Notes under the pieces: generated by a model
The model's database searches: none
Seen by the model: only the letters and a program-made list of their open reading frames with translations
What the model was told of the DNA's origin: nothing
Translations under genes and position numbers: made by a program
Source: Promethearchaeota archaeon Loki_b31
GTDB lineage: Archaea > Asgardarchaeota > Lokiarchaeia > Sigyniarchaeales > SOKP01
Reading direction: 5' to 3'
Length of the DNA: 64,000 bases
Assembly: GCA_005222975.1 (NCBI GenBank)
Contig: NJBI01000001.1
Coordinates: 42,571 to 106,570 of the forward strand
Shown here: positions 20,322-35,615 of the stretch, piece after piece
Numbering within the stretch: position 1 is the first letter of the stretch
Layout of the letters: each line of letters opens with the position of its first letter

Positions 20322-21398
20322 TTAAGCAGATTTAATCGTTAATTTATTTCTTTTCCCAACTGTTAACCCCTTTTTCTTTCTTCGGATCATTTCGACAAAA
20401 CTTTCTACTCTTGTGAGCAATCCGGCTTCCCCGCTGTGCTCGTCCATTATAATTTCTAAAAAGGGAAGTCCTACAATTTTCATGTCTCTCATGATCAGTT
20501 CAGAGATAAGGCTATCTGGTCCGCATGCGAAGCTGATTAAGAAAATTACGCCATCTATTTCGTCGCGTCCTTTAGTAAGGAAAAATCGAATAGCCTGCAT
20601 AATTTCCTCTTCGTGTCTCCAATAATTTTGTAATTTTGCCCCTCTGGGGTTCACTATAACGGGCTTCTTGAAAATCGATTCTGGCAGATTTTCTATGGTA
20701 ATGTGATCAACTCCTTGGTCTTTCAATTTTTTTTGAAAATCGAGGTTAATAAAAGTATCAAATATATTATAACCATGCCCTAATAGCAAAAATCGTATAT
20801 CTCCTTCGCTTTTTCTTTTTGGTAAGGTAAAAGGGCGATTTCTTTCGACTAACCTTAAAGCGTGGTTAACTGAGGCGCCCTCTCTAAGAAACTCGTGATA
20901 ATCGTCGAAATATTTTTGCGCTTCTTTATAAGCATTTAAGGCTTTGCTTTGGCTTTTCCCTAGTTGCTTTCCGAGTTCAACGGCAGCTGTCGATATTGGA
21001 AACTCTTTAACATTTACTTCAAAATTTAAAATCCTTGGAACGCCAGGTAGAATTTTAATCACATCTGGTAAAGACAAAAATTTAGGGCAAAAGTACGAAT
21101 CTTTTACTTCCGAAACATACCTAGGCACAAAAACAAAGTCTAAATCAGGATGATCTTTTACTAACCTTAAGAGTTGACCGTAATATATCTTGACTGGAAT
21201 ACACAACTCTCCGAATCCGTGTGTTACGCCCTCCTCAACGATTTTCTTGTTTGTAAGGGGACTTATAACGATTTCAGCGTCCAGTTCTTCCAGTAGTTTT
21301 TTCCAAAATGGAAAATATCTATAAAAATGAAGTGCCCTTGGTATCCCTACTTTGATCCGTTTCTTCTCTGTTTGTTGAAGTTCTTCCATTAATTCCAC
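20322..21398 (-). CDS. Acyl-CoA dehydratase activase-related protein (HgdB/DUF2229-like Fe-S subunit), copy A
   Basis: KVGIPRALHFYRYFPFWKKLLEELDAEIVISP closely matches the IGIPRAL..Y..YPFW..FF..LG motif that follows the activase domains in fused bacterial proteins. Also ELCIPVK, YFCPKF and FACGPDS. Confidence 0.7.
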   Translation of the reverse strand: MELMEELQQTEKKRIKVGIPRALHFYRYFPFWKKLLEELDAEIVISPLTNKKIVEEGVTHGFGELCIPVKIYYGQLLRLVKDHPDLDFVFVPRYVSEVKDSYFCPKFLSLPDVIKILPGVPRILNFEVNVKEFPISTAAVELGKQLGKSQSKALNAYKEAQKYFDDYHEFLREGASVNHALRLVERNRPFTLPKRKSEGDIRFLLLGHGYNIFDTFINLDFQKKLKDQGVDHITIENLPESIFKKPVIVNPRGAKLQNYWRHEEEIMQAIRFFLTKGRDEIDGVIFLISFACGPDSLISELIMRDMKIVGLPFLEIIMDEHSGEAGLLTRVESFVEMIRRKKKGLTVGKRNKLTIKSA

Positions 21399-24793: not shown

Positions 24794-25020
24794 GTATTTA
24801 AATATAATTTTATTTTTCTTTTTATTTCACGAATGTGTTAAATTCTTGATTTGAATTTGCGTTATTTTTTTCTATTTACTTTTAAAAACCGAATATCATT
24901 AACATTTTCTCTGAAACTTATATAAAAGTTATAATCTTCTTCTTTTAGCTATTTTAATAAACTTTAAGTTCAAGATTTCGCTTTCCTTATTACCGTTAAC
25001 AAATTCTTCTTATTAATATA

Positions 25021-26214
25021 ATGAAAGCAGATAATTACAGAGTGTTTCCAATATTCCTTTTAGCATTTACGCGTGTTTCGACAGGAGTGGCGATTGGTTT
25101 AGCTATTCCACTTTATTTAATTGAGATAGGATTAAATCCTGAAATAATTGGAATCATTACTTCTGGAACAGCCATGGCATACTTATTTTCGCCTTTAATC
25201 TTTAGAAATGTACAGAAAAAGCTTGGTGTAAAACCTACAATTATCATATCATCATTAGGTTTCTTACTTATTCAAGTAATCTTGCAGTTCTCAAAAGATC
25301 CATTGTTGATTTATTTCTTGTTAATTTTAGATGGAACATTTTTAGGATTGTTTTGGCAAATTTTAATGGGCGCACTTTCGGCGATATCAAATTCAGAAGA
25401 ATATCGTAAAAATAACTCATTAAAGGATAAATTAATGAAAAAGTATAGTTTAGCTTGGAATTTTGGAGGAATTTTTAGCTACGCTTTAGGTTTCTTTATT
25501 TTGTTTTATATTGAAAATATTCAGATAATGTTTTTATTTGCGTTATTTTTTGCTATTATCGGCTTTAGTATAGCTTTAATTATTCAGGAACCCTCTCATA
25601 GTTTCGATAAAGAGATTATCGTTCCAATTGACGAGGGAATAAAAGCAATTCCTCAAAGAGAACACATTTCTTTTCCTATAATTCTGCCGCTTTTTATGAT
25701 TGGAATTTATGGGTTTTTAATTGGAGGTTTGGGATTAATTTATCCAATTAAATCTGAAATACTAAATTTCGCTCTCTTCACTAATTATCTATTTTTCTTT
25801 TTAAGAATGAGTACTCAAACGATTTCAATTTCAAAATCTATGGACTTTAAAATAAAAACAACCAAAAAAATGATTCCTATATCCAATCTACTTATCATGT
25901 TTTCCCTTTTCTTGATGGGAATAAATCAAAACTTATTTATCTTTGCAATTCTCTTTTGTGCGTTTGGAATTTTTAATTCTTTTTATTATACCCTTGCTTT
26001 CAAACTAATAGTATTTCGGAATATAGCGAATAACACTTCAAAATACAGCACTTATTTTGAAACTGCGATTGGAATTGGATTCTTTTTTGCGCCAATACTT
26101 TGTGGTTTTATCGCTGCGGTAGATGCAAACTTAGCATTTTTCTTTTTATCCCTATTATCGTTGTTAAGCTTAGTTATATATCTACTTTCTAAAAACAAAA
26201 TTGAAACTAATTAA
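25021..26214 (+). CDS. MFS-type polytopic transporter
   Basis: About 12 TM segments in two halves separated by a hydrophilic loop (IQEPSHSFDKEIIVPIDEG). Confidence 0.6.
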   Translation: MKADNYRVFPIFLLAFTRVSTGVAIGLAIPLYLIEIGLNPEIIGIITSGTAMAYLFSPLIFRNVQKKLGVKPTIIISSLGFLLIQVILQFSKDPLLIYFLLILDGTFLGLFWQILMGALSAISNSEEYRKNNSLKDKLMKKYSLAWNFGGIFSYALGFFILFYIENIQIMFLFALFFAIIGFSIALIIQEPSHSFDKEIIVPIDEGIKAIPQREHISFPIILPLFMIGIYGFLIGGLGLIYPIKSEILNFALFTNYLFFFLRMSTQTISISKSMDFKIKTTKKMIPISNLLIMFSLFLMGINQNLFIFAILFCAFGIFNSFYYTLAFKLIVFRNIANNTSKYSTYFETAIGIGFFFAPILCGFIAAVDANLAFFFLSLLSLLSLVIYLLSKNKIETN

Positions 26215-26310
26215 CAAATTAAATTTCGGCTTTAATATTTCATTACATTAATATGAGAAAGCTCATTTTAGAATCCATATAAGGGATATTATTATTAGAG
26301 CTCAGTTCTT

Positions 26311-26865
26311 ATGGAAAATATCAATTCTAATAATTCAGCAGATTCTATAAGCTACAATCGCATATTATGGCCTATTTATTTTCTTAATGGGTTCCAAAGT
26401 ATTGCCTGGGGCGGGATTATCTTTCTTATCGTACCAATATCAAGAATTATGTGGCCAACTGAGCCAACTCACGCTTTAGAAATGGGAACATTAATTACAG
26501 TGCTATCATGGTCTGCTTCGATTTCAGGATTAGTATTTGGACACTTAATTGATAAATACTCTCGTAAAAAGATAATCGTTATTATTTCAATATTTAGGGG
26601 GCTTGCGATAATAATGCTTGGATTTGCATTGGAGGGCGGCGGTTCGTCAGCTTGGATATATTTCTTAGTTTTCATAAGTATTTTTGGGATGTTTGCGGGA
26701 TTAAGTTGGCCCGCCGTAATATCTTTGTCTAACGATATCGTTCCTAAAGCTTTTCGTTCGCGTTTTTTTGGCGTTTATGAGATAGTTCGCTCTCTTACTA
26801 TGACCTTTGGGTTTTTAATTGGAGCTTTTTTAGTGCAGAACGGGCTGTGGAGACAGTATTTTTGA
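26311..26865 (+). CDS. MFS transporter, N-terminal 6-TM half. It ends at an in-frame TGA and is frame-continuous with 26950..27762
   Basis: GHLIDKYSRKKII (MFS loop 2-3 motif). TGA at 26863-26865. The next 28 codons up to 26950 are open in the same frame and encode the expected TM7 region. Confidence 0.6.
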   Translation: MENINSNNSADSISYNRILWPIYFLNGFQSIAWGGIIFLIVPISRIMWPTEPTHALEMGTLITVLSWSASISGLVFGHLIDKYSRKKIIVIISIFRGLAIIMLGFALEGGGSSAWIYFLVFISIFGMFAGLSWPAVISLSNDIVPKAFRSRFFGVYEIVRSLTMTFGFLIGAFLVQNGLWRQYF

Positions 26866-26949
26866 GGTACAGGATTAGGTATTTTAATTTGTGCCCTAAT
26901 TTTTGCAATTCATAACGACGAGCCTAAAAGAGGAGCTCAACAAGAAGAG

Positions 26950-27762
26950 TTGTTACATATCCTTAAAAAGAAAGATGTCAATTACAACTTTAAAATCAAT
27001 CGGGAGACTATGCTTAAAACAATGTTAAGTAAAACTAATAAAGTTGCCTTAATTGAAGGAATATTTACTCAGATTCTAATGGGCTCTATCAACTTTTTAA
27101 TTCTTACCCTTATCCAAAATGAACCTCACAATATTTCCGAATTTTCAACTAGTATTTTCATGATTACTTTTGGGTTAACGGGAGGAATTGTCGGACAGTT
27201 ACTATTAGCAAGGTTAAGCGATAAATTAGCTAAAAAGCGGCCTATTATAAGAATACCAATTATTATTATAGCTATTATTGGGGGTCTATTCACTTTTATT
27301 CTTTTCTTTTTTATTCCCTGGCCCCATTTGACTATTGAGCAAGGGAAAGATGTTGCTTTCTTAATGGCACTCCCAATAATTTGGTTAATGGGTATTATGT
27401 TCTTCTCATCAAGATCTATTTTTTCTCTATATATGGTTAACCAAAGTCCATTATTACAAGAAATAAATTTGCCAGAAGCACAAGGTCAAATAGTTTCATG
27501 GAATCAATTTTTAGAAAATTTCGGGAGAGGTATGGGCCCCTTATTAAGTGGGATTCTATTGGCTGTGACAAGCATGAATTATCAATCCACAATTTTAATA
27601 ATTGCACTATGTATTCTTCCCGGAGTAATATTATGGGGGTTTGCGATAAAATGGTTTCCTTCTGATGCTTATAACATAAGAGAGATATTAAAGGGAAGAG
27701 TTGACATTTTAGAATCAAATGAAGGGATGTCATCTCCCTCAGATCACCAAATAAAACCTTAA
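26950..27762 (+). CDS. MFS transporter, C-terminal half (same frame as 26311..26865; the TTG start is an ORF-calling artefact)
   Basis: ARLSDKLAKKRPII (second MFS loop motif). Collinear with the paralog at 27860..29278. Confidence 0.55.
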   Translation: MLHILKKKDVNYNFKINRETMLKTMLSKTNKVALIEGIFTQILMGSINFLILTLIQNEPHNISEFSTSIFMITFGLTGGIVGQLLLARLSDKLAKKRPIIRIPIIIIAIIGGLFTFILFFFIPWPHLTIEQGKDVAFLMALPIIWLMGIMFFSSRSIFSLYMVNQSPLLQEINLPEAQGQIVSWNQFLENFGRGMGPLLSGILLAVTSMNYQSTILIIALCILPGVILWGFAIKWFPSDAYNIREILKGRVDILESNEGMSSPSDHQIKP

Positions 27763-27859
27763 TGAAATAAAAAACTCTTATAGTTGTAATGTTTCATCAA
27801 TTTAAAATTTGAATTCTCATTTTCCATTCCATATACTTATGAATTTATAGAATTTAGAA

Positions 27860-28834
27860 TTGAAGTTAGAAATGGAATTAAACGATTCTCATCAATCTTA
27901 TAATAAATTAATTTGGCCAGTATATTTACTCAACGGATTTAATAGTATAGCATTTGCGGGCATAATTATTCTAATGGTACCATTGTCTTCGCTTATTTGG
28001 CCAGGAGAAGATTATCACGCGCTAGAGATGGGAATTTTAATGACCACACTTTTATGGACTTCTTCTCTGTCAGGTTTATTCCTTGGTAGGCTTATTGATA
28101 AGTATTCACGAGTAAAAATCTTATTAATTATATCCATTGCCAGAAGTTTTTGCATGATTATGCTCGGGTTCGCTATTGCCGGTCAAGGTATACTGACATG
28201 GTGGTATTTTTTTTTATTTGTTCTAATTTTTGCTCTCTTTGCTGGAGGAAGTTATCCTGCCATAGTTTCACTATCTAACGATATTGTTCCAATAAAACAT
28301 CGCTCTAAATTCTTTGGATATTTTGGTATTTTTGGATCCGTCTTTATGATGCTTGGTTTTCTAATATCTGGTGCTCTAGTGCAGTTTGGGTATTGGAGAT
28401 TATATTTTTTAAGTATAGGAATTGCGGTTCTTCTTTCGGGCTTAATATTTTTTTTTTATGTTAAGGAACCAAAAAGGGGTGTTCAAAGCATTTTATTACG
28501 AGATGTACTTAAAGATCGATCGATTGAATATGATTTTAAGAGGGATAAAGAATTAATGCGTAGAACTATGCTATCTCGCACTAATATTGCAGCTTTAATT
28601 GAGGGAATATTTACCAATGTATTTATGGGAAGTTTGGATATGATTATTTTACCTTATTTACAAACCCCTCCACATAATCTCTCTCCACTAATAACAGGAT
28701 TATTTGTCGTTATTTTTGGAGTTATTGGACGCGTTATAGGGCAAATTTTACTCGCTCGAGTGTCAGATAAGTTAGCAGAGAAAAATGATGTAAGAAGGAT
28801 TGTTTTTATAATATTTTCTTTAGTAGGAGGGTAA
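27860..28834 (+). CDS. MFS transporter paralog, N-terminal two thirds. It ends at an in-frame TAA and is frame-continuous with 28850..29278
   Basis: Collinear with 26311..27762 (LIWPVYLLNGFNSIAFAGIIILMVPLS versus ILWPIYFLNGFQSIAWGGIIFLIVPIS). The likely true start is ATG 27872. TAA at 28832-28834. Confidence 0.6.
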   Translation: MKLEMELNDSHQSYNKLIWPVYLLNGFNSIAFAGIIILMVPLSSLIWPGEDYHALEMGILMTTLLWTSSLSGLFLGRLIDKYSRVKILLIISIARSFCMIMLGFAIAGQGILTWWYFFLFVLIFALFAGGSYPAIVSLSNDIVPIKHRSKFFGYFGIFGSVFMMLGFLISGALVQFGYWRLYFLSIGIAVLLSGLIFFFYVKEPKRGVQSILLRDVLKDRSIEYDFKRDKELMRRTMLSRTNIAALIEGIFTNVFMGSLDMIILPYLQTPPHNLSPLITGLFVVIFGVIGRVIGQILLARVSDKLAEKNDVRRIVFIIFSLVGG

Positions 28835-28849
28835 ATTACTTTTGTTTTA

Positions 28850-29278
28850 ATGTTTTTCGTACCATTGCCTTTTTTAACGCCTGAAGAAGGAGCAAACATC
28901 GTTCTATTCTTTTCACTTCCTTTAACATATGTAATGGGTATTTTAATTTTAAGTTCTGACGCTATATCTTCTTTATACATGGTTAATCAACCACCGATCC
29001 TACAAGAAATAAATCTTCCAGAAGCTCAAGGCCAAATTGTTTCATGGAATCAATTCTTAGAGAATATCGGTTATGGTATGGGGCCTTTAATCGCAGGTAT
29101 TTTCATATCCATTTTCGGACAGAATTATAAGATTAGTGCTGTGATAATAACTATTTTTGTAATTCCTGGTATAATTTTGTGGACATTGTCTTGTAATTGG
29201 TATACACAAGATAAAGAAAGAATTAGGACTATACTAAGTGAACGAGCAACAATTTTGAAATCAAGAAATAAAAACTAA
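28850..29278 (+). CDS. MFS transporter paralog, C-terminal third (same frame as 27860..28834)
   Basis: LYMVNQPPILQEINLPEAQGQIVSWNQFLEN is nearly identical to the paralog. Only 5 sense codons separate it from the TAA. Confidence 0.55.
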   Translation: MFFVPLPFLTPEEGANIVLFFSLPLTYVMGILILSSDAISSLYMVNQPPILQEINLPEAQGQIVSWNQFLENIGYGMGPLIAGIFISIFGQNYKISAVIITIFVIPGIILWTLSCNWYTQDKERIRTILSERATILKSRNKN

Positions 29279-29457
29279 ATAAATGCTGAAACTGTTTTTA
29301 ATATTTAATATTTCTTAAGAAAAATCGTGTGTTTCATTATAGACTAAATAATAATAAATTTTTGTTTTGAAAAACATTCAAATAATCTTAATGATATATT
29401 TATTGTTGTTGGTCTTTTGTTTAATTTTAAAAAATAAAACAAATTAAATTAGATAAA

Positions 29458-30009
29458 ATGAAGGAACCAGGCTCTGAAACACACCCGCTAAAATTTAAGG
29501 TCCCAATCTTCGGAGACGGGGGCGTAGGAAAAACTACCTTGACTCATCGCTTTCTTAATGGGGTTTTTAAAGAATCCTATCAACTAACGATTGGAATGGA
29601 CTTTTTTCTAAAAAAAATTAAAATTAATGGAAAAAGTATTTCTTTGCAAATTTGGGATTTTGCTGGAGAAAAGAAATTTAGGTTTCTCTTACCCGGTGCT
29701 GTGATGGGGGCCAATGGAACCATATTAATGTTTGATTTAACTCGATATGTCACATTTAAAAATCTAACCGATTGGTTAGCTGCTATTAACGAAGCTAACG
29801 AAATACACGATCAAAAATTTATACCTATACTTCTAGTTGGAAGCAAGCTCGATCTTGATGGAATGAGAACAGTTCCAAAAGAAGAGGCCATTAAATTTGC
29901 TAAACAGAATAATTTTATTGATTATATTGAATGTTCTTCAAAAAGCGGTGAAAATGTTGAGGAATTGTTTGCAATAATTAGTAGAAGTATAGTCAAAAAA
30001 CTAAAATAA
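29458..30009 (+). CDS. Ras-superfamily small GTPase (Rab/Ras-like) with atypical G3/G4 motifs
   Basis: G1 GDGGVGKTT, G3 WDFAGE (no catalytic Gln), G4 GSKLD (Ser for Asn), G5 CSSKSG. Confidence 0.85.
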   Translation: MKEPGSETHPLKFKVPIFGDGGVGKTTLTHRFLNGVFKESYQLTIGMDFFLKKIKINGKSISLQIWDFAGEKKFRFLLPGAVMGANGTILMFDLTRYVTFKNLTDWLAAINEANEIHDQKFIPILLVGSKLDLDGMRTVPKEEAIKFAKQNNFIDYIECSSKSGENVEELFAIISRSIVKKLK

Positions 30010-30173
30010 TCCAAAATCATTCTGAATTTCTTTCCGTTTTAAGAAAAAAGAAAAAAGAAAGTATATATTATAAAATTTTTATACCCTCTATTAATTATTA
30101 AGAAGTAATGTTGTACGATTTCTATTTTTAACAATAAATTAATACTTCAAAACTAAATTCTGATGGCAAAATT

Positions 30174-31787
30174 ATGAAATCTATGTACGAATTAAATGTT
30201 CCAATTCCGTCTAAACGCGCTTTAATTGTAAGGAATATCAAAGAAGTTTCTAAAGAGCAGAGAGAAGTTGCTTTGAAAAAGACAGAATATAGTATGTTTT
30301 CTTTTCCAGCAGATATGCTTGTTTTAGATTTTCTTTCTGATAGTGGAAGTTCATCAATGACAGATTTACAGTGGGCTGCTCTTTTTCACGGAGATGAATC
30401 TTATGGGCGTAACAAAGGATATTATGTTCTTCTTGATGCTATTAGAGATACTTTTGAAAGGGGAAATGAGCCAAAAAACGCCATAAACTTAATTCTTTCT
30501 GGAGAAACCAATGTAAAAAAATTAATGGACGAGTTATATCTTACATCGTTCGAAGGAGGTTTTGTTAACGGGGGAATTCATCAGCTGACTCGCCCTAACG
30601 CGTTTTTAGTACCCCAAGGTCGTTGTGCGGAACATTTGTTATTTTCCACTATTGCTCCAATTCTAAAAGAAAAGAGCCCAAATAAAGAATTCTTCATCTT
30701 TAACAACGGACACTTCGATACAACTGAAGCTAATATTGCCGCAAATGGACTCCATCCAATAAATCTATTCTCAGCAAACTTATTGGAAGATTTTCCTCCT
30801 GATCAAATGGATATTAAAAACCCTTTCAAGGGAAATATGGATAGTGAAAAACTGGAATCTTTTATCCAAAAAAAGGGAGCTGATAGCATCCCATTAATAT
30901 ATTTAACTATTACCAATAATACTGCCGCAGGTCAACCCGTTTCAATGAATAACATTAAAACAATTAACGAAATCGCACATCGCTCTGGAATTCCGCTTTT
31001 TTTAGATGCTTGCAGATTTGCTGAAAACGCTTTTTTCATTAAGGAATTCGAAGAAGGGTATAATAACATTAGCATTTTAAAAATAGTTCGAGAGATGTTT
31101 TCTTACGTTGATGGTTTTACTATAAGTTTTAAAAAAGATGGACTTGCTAACATAGGTGGGGGTTTATTTTTTAGAGATCAAGGAGTATTTTACAAAAAAT
31201 TCTCGACTAACGGGAATATTGGGATTAAATTAAAAGAAAAACAAATCCTTACATTTGGGAACGACTCGTATGGGGGATTATCAGGTCGGGACATTATGGC
31301 TTTAGCAGTAGGTTTATATGAAGTTGTTAAAGAACCATATCTGGCTGAGAGGATTCGCCAAGTTCGAGAATTTGCGCGAAAACTAACTGAAAATGGAGTA
31401 CCTGTTGTGCTTCCTGCGGGCGGTCACGCTGTCTATATTAATATGGATAAATTCTTTAAGGGGACAGATATGAAGGTGGATGATTTTGGTGGCGTTGGAT
31501 TCGGTATAGAACTCTTAAGACACTACGGAATTAGAGCCTGTGAATTAGGACCTTTTGCGTTTGAGTGGGATAAGAAAACGCCAGAACAACGAAAAAGTAT
31601 CTTAAATTTAGTTCGATTTGCGGTACCTAGAAACACCTATGGGCCTTCTCATATTAATTACGCAGTCGCAGCTGTAACCGAACTTTACCGCAATCGAGAA
31701 AAAATTCCGAAAGTAAGAGTTTCTCGTGGTGTTAACTTAAAATTGCGCCACTTTCAATCAGGACTACAACCTATTTACAACGATTAA
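30174..31787 (+). CDS. PLP-dependent beta-eliminating lyase family protein (tryptophanase / tyrosine phenol-lyase-like)
   Basis: FLSDSGSSSMTDLQWAALFHGDESYGRNKGYY matches the TnaA/TPL N-terminal block. SFKKDGLANIGG matches the PLP-lysine block. At 537 aa it is longer than typical members. Confidence 0.8.
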   Translation: MKSMYELNVPIPSKRALIVRNIKEVSKEQREVALKKTEYSMFSFPADMLVLDFLSDSGSSSMTDLQWAALFHGDESYGRNKGYYVLLDAIRDTFERGNEPKNAINLILSGETNVKKLMDELYLTSFEGGFVNGGIHQLTRPNAFLVPQGRCAEHLLFSTIAPILKEKSPNKEFFIFNNGHFDTTEANIAANGLHPINLFSANLLEDFPPDQMDIKNPFKGNMDSEKLESFIQKKGADSIPLIYLTITNNTAAGQPVSMNNIKTINEIAHRSGIPLFLDACRFAENAFFIKEFEEGYNNISILKIVREMFSYVDGFTISFKKDGLANIGGGLFFRDQGVFYKKFSTNGNIGIKLKEKQILTFGNDSYGGLSGRDIMALAVGLYEVVKEPYLAERIRQVREFARKLTENGVPVVLPAGGHAVYINMDKFFKGTDMKVDDFGGVGFGIELLRHYGIRACELGPFAFEWDKKTPEQRKSILNLVRFAVPRNTYGPSHINYAVAAVTELYRNREKIPKVRVSRGVNLKLRHFQSGLQPIYND

Positions 31788-34039: not shown

Positions 34040-34097
34040 GAATTAGTTTATCAAAATATATTTGAAAATGAGTTGAGATAAAAAAATTAATTCATTT

Positions 34098-34667
34098 TTA
34101 GTTCTCTTTGTACTTGAAAACTAATTCTGCTATTTTCTGAAACACTTCTTTTACGGTATCCCCCGTAAGAGCCGAGGTTTCGAAATAAGGCGCGTTGAGC
34201 TTTTCGCTTAGATGCTCTGCCATGGGCAATATGATTTTACGCTCGTCTTTCAAATCTACTTTATTTCCTATTAAGATTCGAGGGACGTTACTGAGCCCAA
34301 ATTTTTCAGCTGAAGAGTACCAATTAGTAATGTTGGAAAAAGTGCTAGACCGTGTCATGTCATATACCAGAATCATACCATCCGCCCCATTAAAGTAGGG
34401 GCGATGTAACATATAGAACTGTGGTTGTCCCGCTACCTCCCAGAACATCAAGTTAATTGTAGCGTTGTTCTCCTTCAATTCAATTGGTTCCTTTACAATA
34501 TTAACACCGACTGTGGGCAAATAAACCTCCTCAAACTTATTGGTGGCAAATTTCGTAAGAAGGCTGGTTTTCCCAACAGAAGGGTCACCAATAACAATTA
34601 CTTTATATATCGATTCAGTCCTCCCCTCAAAAAATAATCCTCCTTCTTCTCTCTTGTTATTACTCAT
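34098..34667 (-). CDS. Ras-superfamily small GTPase (tandem paralog A)
   Basis: G1 GDPSVGKTS, G3 WEVAGQ, G4 GNKVDL, G5 ETSAL. Confidence 0.85.
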   Translation of the reverse strand: MSNNKREEGGLFFEGRTESIYKVIVIGDPSVGKTSLLTKFATNKFEEVYLPTVGVNIVKEPIELKENNATINLMFWEVAGQPQFYMLHRPYFNGADGMILVYDMTRSSTFSNITNWYSSAEKFGLSNVPRILIGNKVDLKDERKIILPMAEHLSEKLNAPYFETSALTGDTVKEVFQKIAELVFKYKEN

Positions 34668-34849
34668 TTGAATTCTGAACCTTTGTGATTTTAATTTTGA
34701 ATAGTTATAATAAATATGAAGTACATCTATATAATTTTTAATAATTTACTTTAAAACTATTTAAGTTTAAGTTTGAAACACTCCAAAGGAATTTGATTTG
34801 CTTCTACGAAAAAGATTTGAAAAAGAGCAACGATAAAAAAATAATTTTA

Positions 34850-35422
34850 TTAATAGTTCTCTTTGTACTTGAAAACTAATTCTCCTATTTTTTGAAACAC
34901 TTCTTTTACGGTTTCCCCCGTAAGAGCTGAGGTTTCGAAATAAGGCGCGTTGAGTTTTTCGCTTAGATGCTCTGCCATGGGCAATATGATTTTACGCTCG
35001 TCTTTTAAATCTATTTTATTTCCTATTAAGATTCGTGGGATGCCACTAAGCCCATATTTTACGGCAGAATTGTACCAATTATTGATGTTAGAAAAAGTAC
35101 TAGACCGCGTTATGTCAAATACTAGAATCATACCATCCGCTCCGTTAAAGTAAGGACGATGTAACATATAGAACTGCGGTTGTCCCGCTACGTCCCAAAA
35201 CATCAAATTAATTATAGCATTAAGACCCTCCAATTCAATGGGCTCTTTAACAATGGACACACCGACTGTGGGCAAATATTTTTCCTCAAATTGGTTTTTA
35301 GCGAATTTTGTAAGAAGGCTCGTCTTCCCAACAGCGGGATCGCCAATAACAATTACTTTAAAAATGGATTCTGTTCGCCCTTGAAAAACTAAATTTCCTT
35401 CTTTCCTCTCGTTATTACTCAT
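34850..35422 (-). CDS. Ras-superfamily small GTPase (tandem paralog B)
   Basis: G1 GDPAVGKTS, G3 WDVAGQ, G4 GNKIDL, G5 ETSAL. Very high identity to 34098..34667. Confidence 0.85.
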   Translation of the reverse strand: MSNNERKEGNLVFQGRTESIFKVIVIGDPAVGKTSLLTKFAKNQFEEKYLPTVGVSIVKEPIELEGLNAIINLMFWDVAGQPQFYMLHRPYFNGADGMILVFDITRSSTFSNINNWYNSAVKYGLSGIPRILIGNKIDLKDERKIILPMAEHLSEKLNAPYFETSALTGETVKEVFQKIGELVFKYKENY

Positions 35423-35615
35423 TTGATTTCTAATCGTTTGTGATTTTAATTATAAATTGTTATTATAAATATGAAGTTCTTATTTATAATTTTTAACAAT
35501 TTCCTTTTAAAATATTTAAGCTTAACGATTGAAAAAAGTAAGCATTAATAAGGAATTTATTGAGAAAGTTTAAGAGAATTATGAAAAATTTTTTTTTAAA
35601 GCTTTTTTTTAGATA

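Follow-up and report, generated by a model that had tools for sequence, protein, structure and literature searches.

Two adjacent transporter genes of the major facilitator superfamily in an uncultured Asgard archaeon, each interrupted by one derived stop codon

Results

Structure and family of the tandem genes

The DNA analyzed here, hereafter the window, is a stretch of 64,000 nucleotides (C61:42571-106570) from the 3.5-Mb metagenome-assembled genome (MAG; 99 contigs, 92% complete, G000 in our comparison set) of Promethearchaeota archaeon Loki_b31, an uncultured Asgard archaeon, and it is densely coding under the standard genetic code (table 11). Our subject is a tandem pair of paralogous genes within it, termed A and B, that encode transporters of the major facilitator superfamily (MFS) and are each interrupted by a single in-frame stop codon (Table 1). 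Translation bore out the basic observations of an earlier annotation of the window (the original prediction), namely that the open reading frames (ORFs) 26311-26865 and 26950-27762 lie in one frame with the TGA at 26863-26865 as their sole separator, that the ORFs 27860/27872-28834 and 28850-29278 likewise lie in one frame with only the TAA at 28832-28834 between them (27860 being an alternative TTG start of gene B), and that neither gene contains a frameshift, each reading through except for its one stop. The read-through proteins align from end to end with 53% identity (246/468) and, as had also been noted, each stop faces a Leu codon in the other gene, the TGA of A being opposite TTA in B and the TAA of B opposite CTA in A.

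Both genes are assigned to the MFS by significant matches of all their pieces to the Pfam model MFS_1 (PF07690), with scores of 70.2 and 45.2 bits for the N- and C-terminal pieces of A and 106.8 bits for the N-terminal piece of B (cut-off 33.4). An AlphaFold2 model of A in which the stop is read as Trp (built on 38 homologs; pLDDT 81.8, pTM 0.78) has 12 transmembrane (TM) helices in a 6+6 arrangement with a central cytoplasmic loop. Taken together with hydropathy, the model places TM6 at residues 180-201, the central loop at 202-240, TM7 at 241-269 and TM9 at 311-332. The original prediction had put the TGA of A exactly at the boundary between the two six-helix halves and had taken the segment that follows it to be TM7, and both assignments have to be revised, as residue 185 sits inside TM6, the segment after the TGA belongs to that helix, and the central loop comes only thereafter.

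The pair shares with MFS transporters in general the 12-TM, 6+6 fold and a G-x-L-x-D-K-x-x-R stretch after TM2, which we take to be MFS motif A. The nearest solved structure by sequence is that of NorA, a drug/H+ antiporter of the DHA1 type, a remote match (E = 4e-7) that is confined to the N-terminal domain. Searches of NCBIfam and the PDB pointed to no particular subfamily or substrate, and the clade to which A and B belong does not reach the cut-off of any NCBIfam subfamily model. It has a motif of its own, LQxINLPEAQGQIVSWNQFLE, between TM10 and TM11. This motif is near-invariant across the 38 homologs, is identical in A and B despite many synonymous differences, and constitutes a signature of the clade that was found here only in Asgard-labeled or unnamed environmental sequences, the labels of the MFS homologs being Promethearchaeota, Lokiarchaeota, Hodarchaeota and similar.

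Origin of the stops

Orthologs of both genes are carried by three genomes of the same genus, 33X4 (G017), ABR02 (G021) and HM4_B22 (G005), the first two of which, deposited as 'Promethearchaeota archaeon 33X4' and 'Promethearchaeia archaeon ABR02', are the closest genomes to the one studied here. In 33X4 the two genes stand in tandem as in the window, within a collinear 8-kb region, ABR02 has the same arrangement, and in HM4_B22 they are found on separate small contigs. A and B each align with these orthologs at 92.5-95% nucleotide identity with zero indels. The ortholog comparison that the original prediction had called for gave a uniform answer: an uninterrupted frame for a full-length MFS transporter, which neither window gene possesses, is present in all three relatives, with TGG at the site of the stop in A and TCA at that in B. 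The same TCA is found in the MAG CSMAG_2743 (91% identity overall; gene B only) and the same TGG in a metagenome contig from JGI (94.5%; gene A only). Moreover, Trp occupies the position of the stop in A in at least 90% of the 38 family members and in all 18 of the listed close public homologs that cover the site. Because the relatives have sense codons, both stops are derived single-base changes, G>A at 26865 in A and C>A at 28833 in B. A derived stop facing a sense codon in the orthologs of intact relatives, as is characteristic of unitary pseudogenes, is therefore present in A and in B alike.

The homologs in the relatives are all single ORFs of 465-490 amino acids (aa). We also considered a stop phenomenon shared across the family and rejected it. 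Most of the stops flagged in other relatives turned out to be the natural stop or to lie upstream of the start, and the real internal stops, in homologs of four genomes (G029, G011, G026, and G007), are at differing positions with no shared site.

Two assemblies are nearly identical to the window, GCA_030602275.1 (contig JAUWAA010000011.1) and the Logan assembly of run SRR14872665, with DNA identities of 99.8-99.95% over up to 13.4 kb. By exact-sequence look-up, the A protein with Trp at the position of the stop and the other 482 residues identical was found in both of them. Across 26012-29693 the window departs from both at just two positions, 26865 and 28073. At position 26865 the window has A (TGA) and both other assemblies have G (TGG), whereas the TAA of gene B is present in both, where B is called as two proteins of 320 and 142 aa. 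Because it recurs in both near-identical assemblies, the stop in B is reproducible, older than the split between the strains and most probably real. The stop in A occurs in this assembly alone and is either a mutation of very recent date, a polymorphism or an error in the consensus. The second difference, at 28073, lies within gene B and changes Gly68, which is the invariant G77 of the family alignment and stands in the conserved TM2-TM3 loop, in a stretch that we likewise assume to be MFS motif A. The change of this residue to Ser in the sister strain is of the kind expected in an already dead gene.

Selection and age

The ratio of non-synonymous to synonymous substitution rates (dN/dS) against the intact orthologs was computed separately for the parts upstream and downstream of the stops and was 0.09-0.21 in both, which is similar to the 0.08-0.15 between the intact orthologs themselves. 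Relaxed selection downstream of the stops, which the original prediction had named as the sign of plain pseudogenes, was thus not detected. With changes polarized by means of 33X4 and ABR02 and with nine neighboring intact genes as the reference, A and B together show 20 non-synonymous and 30 synonymous changes on the branch leading to this genome, versus 80 and 117 in the nine neighbors (Fisher p = 1.0). Since dN/dS reveals no relaxation, the stops are young, and by a rough calculation the time over which A and B have evolved neutrally would amount to at most about one fifth of a branch that is about 2% long. The original prediction had read purifying selection downstream of both stops from a comparison of the two paralogs over 39 codons (27424-27540 versus 28970-29086). 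Its count of 14 synonymous and 4 non-synonymous codon differences is exact, but it has no bearing on selection after the stops arose, because the paralogs are just 53% identical and had acquired almost all of their differences before the stops appeared; it is the comparison with the orthologs that is informative. Rather, the codon pattern between the paralogs reflects ancient constraint on the family motif.

Reliability of the assembly and other interrupted genes

A census of orthologs that are at least 88% identical in this genome, comprising 139 ORFs of 33X4 (47.7k codons) and 27 ORFs of ABR02 (8.7k codons), found internal stops in A and B only, and net frameshifts were no commoner than in the reverse comparison. 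Another stop of this genome, that of an MFS/BT1-type gene (C67:5388), recurs in an independent Logan contig whose sequence is 100% identical. The assembly does not appear to be error-ridden.

Interrupted genes were sought throughout the genome by means of alignments between paralogs that continue across one stop, followed by Pfam checks, a screen that sees only genes with paralogs. It was used in place of a codon-usage score around candidate interrupted genes, which did not discriminate. About 12 credible stop-interrupted genes were obtained, including A and B. The ten others (Table 1) comprise, in no particular order, an FGGY kinase, a thiolase, two AMP-binding enzymes, a transposase, a BD-FAE hydrolase, a GPH/MFS_2 symporter, the MFS/BT1 transporter at C67:5388, an MttB-family methyltransferase in which the stop is TAA and not TAG, and a deoxyhypusine synthase paralog that is 80% identical to an intact copy on contig C5. 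Truncated pieces are on record for six of the ten, and for five of these six (not the MFS/BT1 gene) full-length homologs are found in the same 90% cluster. The MFS superfamily accounts for an apparent excess, with 4 of about 31 genes hit versus 8 among the roughly 1325 other genes that have paralogs (odds ratio 24, Fisher p = 1e-4), and a concentration in one functional class is not what random sequencing errors should produce. As the original prediction had stated, a GPH symporter gene at the start of the window is also broken in its frame. A frameshift was found there, and its orthologs are intact in ABR02 (91% identity), G016, and G024.

Selenocysteine loci and tRNA genes

Four HdrA-like paralogs in this genome, at C17:24603 (-), C23:4829 (-), C61:151363 (-), and C90:7512 (+), have an in-frame TGA at the second Cys of the motif FPTxDCSxC. 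After each of them comes an mvhD/frhD-like gene with two to three further TGAs, and at least two of these loci are followed in turn by a hairpin that resembles a selenocysteine insertion sequence (SECIS), with AUGA, a G-C-containing stem of 8-9 bp, an A-rich loop, and UGA. This arrangement of UGA codons in hdrA and mvhD matches the published Asgard selenoproteomes (PMC4989117; PMC11227280). In the paper on the Asgard selenoproteome, a term search of the main text found neither 'MFS' nor 'transporter'. Near the MFS genes (26866-29700) our hairpin descriptor gave only stems of 7-8 bp with one mismatch and no G-C pairs, and in the control it recovered perfect G-C-containing hairpins of 8-9 bp after mvhD in two of the four hdrA-mvhD loci. 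An Rfam scan of 25000-30500 for RNA elements found nothing, a result that is uninformative as the same scan missed the genome's own hdrA-mvhD SECIS-like elements.

Between 12 and 14 tRNA genes were detected by aragorn and 22 by Rfam, and the tRNA for Trp has the normal anticodon CCA. A suppressor tRNA, for which the original prediction had proposed a search elsewhere in the genome, was not found: the anticodons UCA, UUA, and CUA are absent from the 19 of the 22 Rfam-detected tRNA genes in which aragorn could read the anticodon, which is weak evidence given that the tRNA set of the MAG is incomplete. The Rfam model for the selenocysteine tRNA (tRNA-Sec) gave no match above its cut-off in the genome. 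With introns allowed, aragorn made a doubtful call of a tRNA-SeC (anticodon TCA, 90-nt intron) at C59:34501-34681 (- strand), where Rfam has no tRNA-Sec match; the call could be false or could mark an Asgard tRNA-Sec gene of unusual form.

Neighboring features and differences between strains

A third MFS gene, divergent and intact, lies directly upstream of A (Table 1), and a gene for a Ras-family GTPase adjoins B. Away from the pair, 20 of the 25 differences between the window and GCA_030602275.1 (99.8% identity) fall within about 700 bp (20436-21147) in the gene at 20322-21398 (- strand), and 15 of these 20 are synonymous; the cluster has the look of a tract brought in by recombination with a strain less closely related. 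At 34053-35534, inside a run of Ras-family GTPase paralogs, the near-identity of the sister assembly ends and falls to 84-87%, for which a rearrangement specific to one strain, a swap between paralogs or a join made during assembly could be responsible.

Table 1. Features of the tandem MFS pair, other features of the window, and further interrupted genes of the genome (window positions unless a contig is given)
Feature	Position	Strand	Description
MFS gene A	26311..27762	+	483 aa if read through; one stop; Pfam MFS_1 on both pieces; intact 483-aa orthologs in G017, G021, G005; 12 TM helices modeled
In-frame TGA of gene A	26863..26865	+	codon 185, inside TM6; from TGG (Trp) by G>A at 26865; private to this assembly
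MFS gene B, tandem paralog of A	27872..29278	+	468 aa if read through; one stop; Pfam MFS_1; intact orthologs in G017, G021, G005
In-frame TAA of gene B	28832..28834	+	codon 321 (= residue 326 of A), inside TM9; from TCA (Ser) by C>A at 28833; common to two other assemblies
Strain difference in gene B	28073	+	G here = Gly68, ancestral (G also in G017, G021); A in both sister assemblies = Ser
Conserved motif SLYMVNQSPLLQEINLPEAQGQIVSWNQFLE...	27424..27540 in A, matching 28970-29086 in B	+	end of TM10 and start of TM11; many columns invariant in 38 homologs
Third MFS gene, divergent, intact	25021..26214	+	ORF of 397 aa; Pfam MFS_1, 76.9 bits; directly upstream of A
GPH-type symporter	1-1367, continues upstream on C61	-	frameshift after 56 codons (between NDPLVG and WLMEKIH...); orthologs are single ORFs of 480-483 aa
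Ten other interrupted loci	C8:23615, C14:13565, C16:69849, C17:49356, C29:3941, C44:55439, C49:13625, C49:10974, C67:5388, C83:780		one in-frame stop each; Pfam domain or paralog alignment through the stop

Discussion

Based on the comparisons presented herein, we consider it likely that the stops in A and B arose by two nonsense mutations of the ordinary loss-of-function kind, which struck a conserved tandem pair of MFS genes, and we put forward the following order of events. Gene B would have been hit first, by a change of TCA to TAA in TM9 that is carried by all three assemblies of the population and that would truncate the protein after 320 of its 468 residues. The hit on gene A would be the younger of the two and confined to the strain or assembly from which the window comes, with a change of TGG to TGA in TM6 and truncation after 184 of 483 residues. 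We propose that the loss of B, or of the need for a substrate shared by the two transporters, removed selection on A and so permitted the second hit, and that the loss of both may belong to a more general loss of secondary transporters from this genome. Both truncated proteins are probably non-functional. Both events are so recent that no further decay has accumulated, except for the change from Gly to Ser in the B gene of the sister strain. We regard gene B as a genuine and very young pseudogene, and gene A as most likely a still younger, strain-specific one. The best reading, and the most economical account, is a stepwise decay in which B was lost in the population and A was then hit in one strain. 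Among the options that the original prediction had left side by side, it is very recent independent nonsense mutations that find support, firmly in the case of B, with its TAA in two other assemblies, and as the probable option in the case of A.

The phenomenon is an ordinary one of an already known kind. Young unitary pseudogenes of prokaryotes show the same combination of a derived single-base stop, intact close orthologs and no other lesions, and among them, too, one stop may be fixed across strains, as in B, and another specific to a strain, as in A, with the pieces annotated as separate small proteins. Nothing essential sets the present case apart from these. What is unusual is that two adjacent paralogs were hit and that disrupted MFS-type transporters are apparently in excess in this genome.

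Several points nevertheless weigh against this interpretation. The TGA of A rests on a single consensus base that is contradicted by two near-identical assemblies, and GCA_030602275.1 may have been assembled from the same reads as the Logan contig, in which case the TAA of B would have only two truly independent witnesses. The dN/dS analysis provides no positive sign of a pseudogene and shows only that the stops are young, and the test for enrichment of transporters is post hoc and restricted to genes with paralogs. Finally, that the truncated products are inactive or unexpressed is presumed.

It is conceivable, if rather unlikely, that the TGA of A arose as an error in the assembly or its consensus, or that the assembler picked up a minority variant there, and that only B is truly broken. 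The TGG in two assemblies 99.9% identical to the window would fit such an error, as would the fact that the exact intact 483-aa A protein is on record in NCBI and in Logan while the 184-aa truncated product is on record from just one contig, the present one. Yet stops and frameshifts are not in excess across the roughly 166 orthologs compared, two other stops of this assembly (the TAA of B and that at C67:5388) are reproduced in independent assemblies, and other genuine-looking single-nucleotide differences from the sister assemblies mark the window as coming from a separate strain, one where a private mutation is plausible. By our estimate, moreover, a random error creates a stop with a chance of only about 4-5%, and this one adjoins a paralog that is already dead. 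A sequencing or assembly substitution, which the original prediction had listed for both stops, is left as an option for A alone, whose TGA is private to this assembly.

We find it very improbable that the stops are tolerated through readthrough, be it by leaky near-cognate decoding of UGA by the tRNA for Trp in A or by a programmed mechanism, including the insertion of selenocysteine (Sec). The ancestral codon at the stop in A specifies Trp, the amino acid most often inserted at UGA by near-cognate decoding in bacteria and eukaryotes, the sequence downstream of the stops has not decayed, and this organism decodes UGA as Sec in its four hdrA-mvhD clusters. The absence of downstream decay is, however, explained by the youth of the stops. 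Neither stop is conserved in any relative, and the sense codons of the orthologs at both sites, TGG and TCA, argue against programmed readthrough; what aligns with the stops is neither a conserved stop nor Cys or Sec, it is Trp for A, in the orthologs as well as in the 99.9%-identical strains, and Ser for B in the orthologs. The 47.7k conserved codons of the 139 orthologs contain no internal in-frame stop beyond the two in the MFS genes, one TGA and one TAA, so that a variant code in which TGA specifies Trp is not indicated either. The UGA of A replaces a Trp in a membrane helix and not a Cys in a redox site, and the stop in B is a TAA that replaces Ser, for which we know of no efficient readthrough route. 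The Asgard selenoprotein genes of the hdrA/frhD type (PMC4989117; PMC11227280) likewise have an in-frame UGA within a conserved ORF, and the Sec trait is present in the same genome, but gene A differs from them in that its UGA stands at a Trp position, is absent from the orthologs and from the 99.9%-identical strains, and has no comparable 3' hairpin. A related idea, to which we give very little credence, is that the nonsense alleles are maintained as partly functional variants and that decoding of the UGA by the tRNA for Trp restores wild-type A at a low level, forming a heritable 'dimmer switch'. If that were true, such a switch would be segregating between the strains of a sediment archaeon limited in energy and, together with the other stop-interrupted MFS and GPH genes, would tune costly uptake. 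It is scarcely credible, lastly, that the two pieces of each gene are translated separately and come together as a functional split transporter. MFS proteins that are split in loops can reassemble, as LacY does, and potential restarts are at hand, an ATG 6 codons past the TAA of B (28850) and a TTG 29 codons past the TGA of A (26950). The half-transporters envisaged in the original prediction are not supported by the location of the breaks, which fall inside TM6 of A and TM9 of B and not in the central loop at the domain boundary, and restarting at these first start codons would delete TM6 of A and half of TM9 of B. The split arrangement is also found in no relative, all of which have single ORFs.

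If A and B are two genes undergoing stepwise loss, as we propose, the consequences are chiefly for the annotation of this genome. The 184-, 320-, and 142-aa pieces are on public record as separate small MFS proteins and would be better flagged as two interrupted genes, one of which (A) may be a strain variant or an error. The locus offers a snapshot of gene loss underway in an Asgard archaeon, where B is dead throughout the population, A is hit in one strain, and secondary transporters are seemingly lost preferentially. A single case does not establish that this bias toward transporters extends to Asgard genomes at large; if it did, something could be learned from it about the narrowing of the niche in these organisms.

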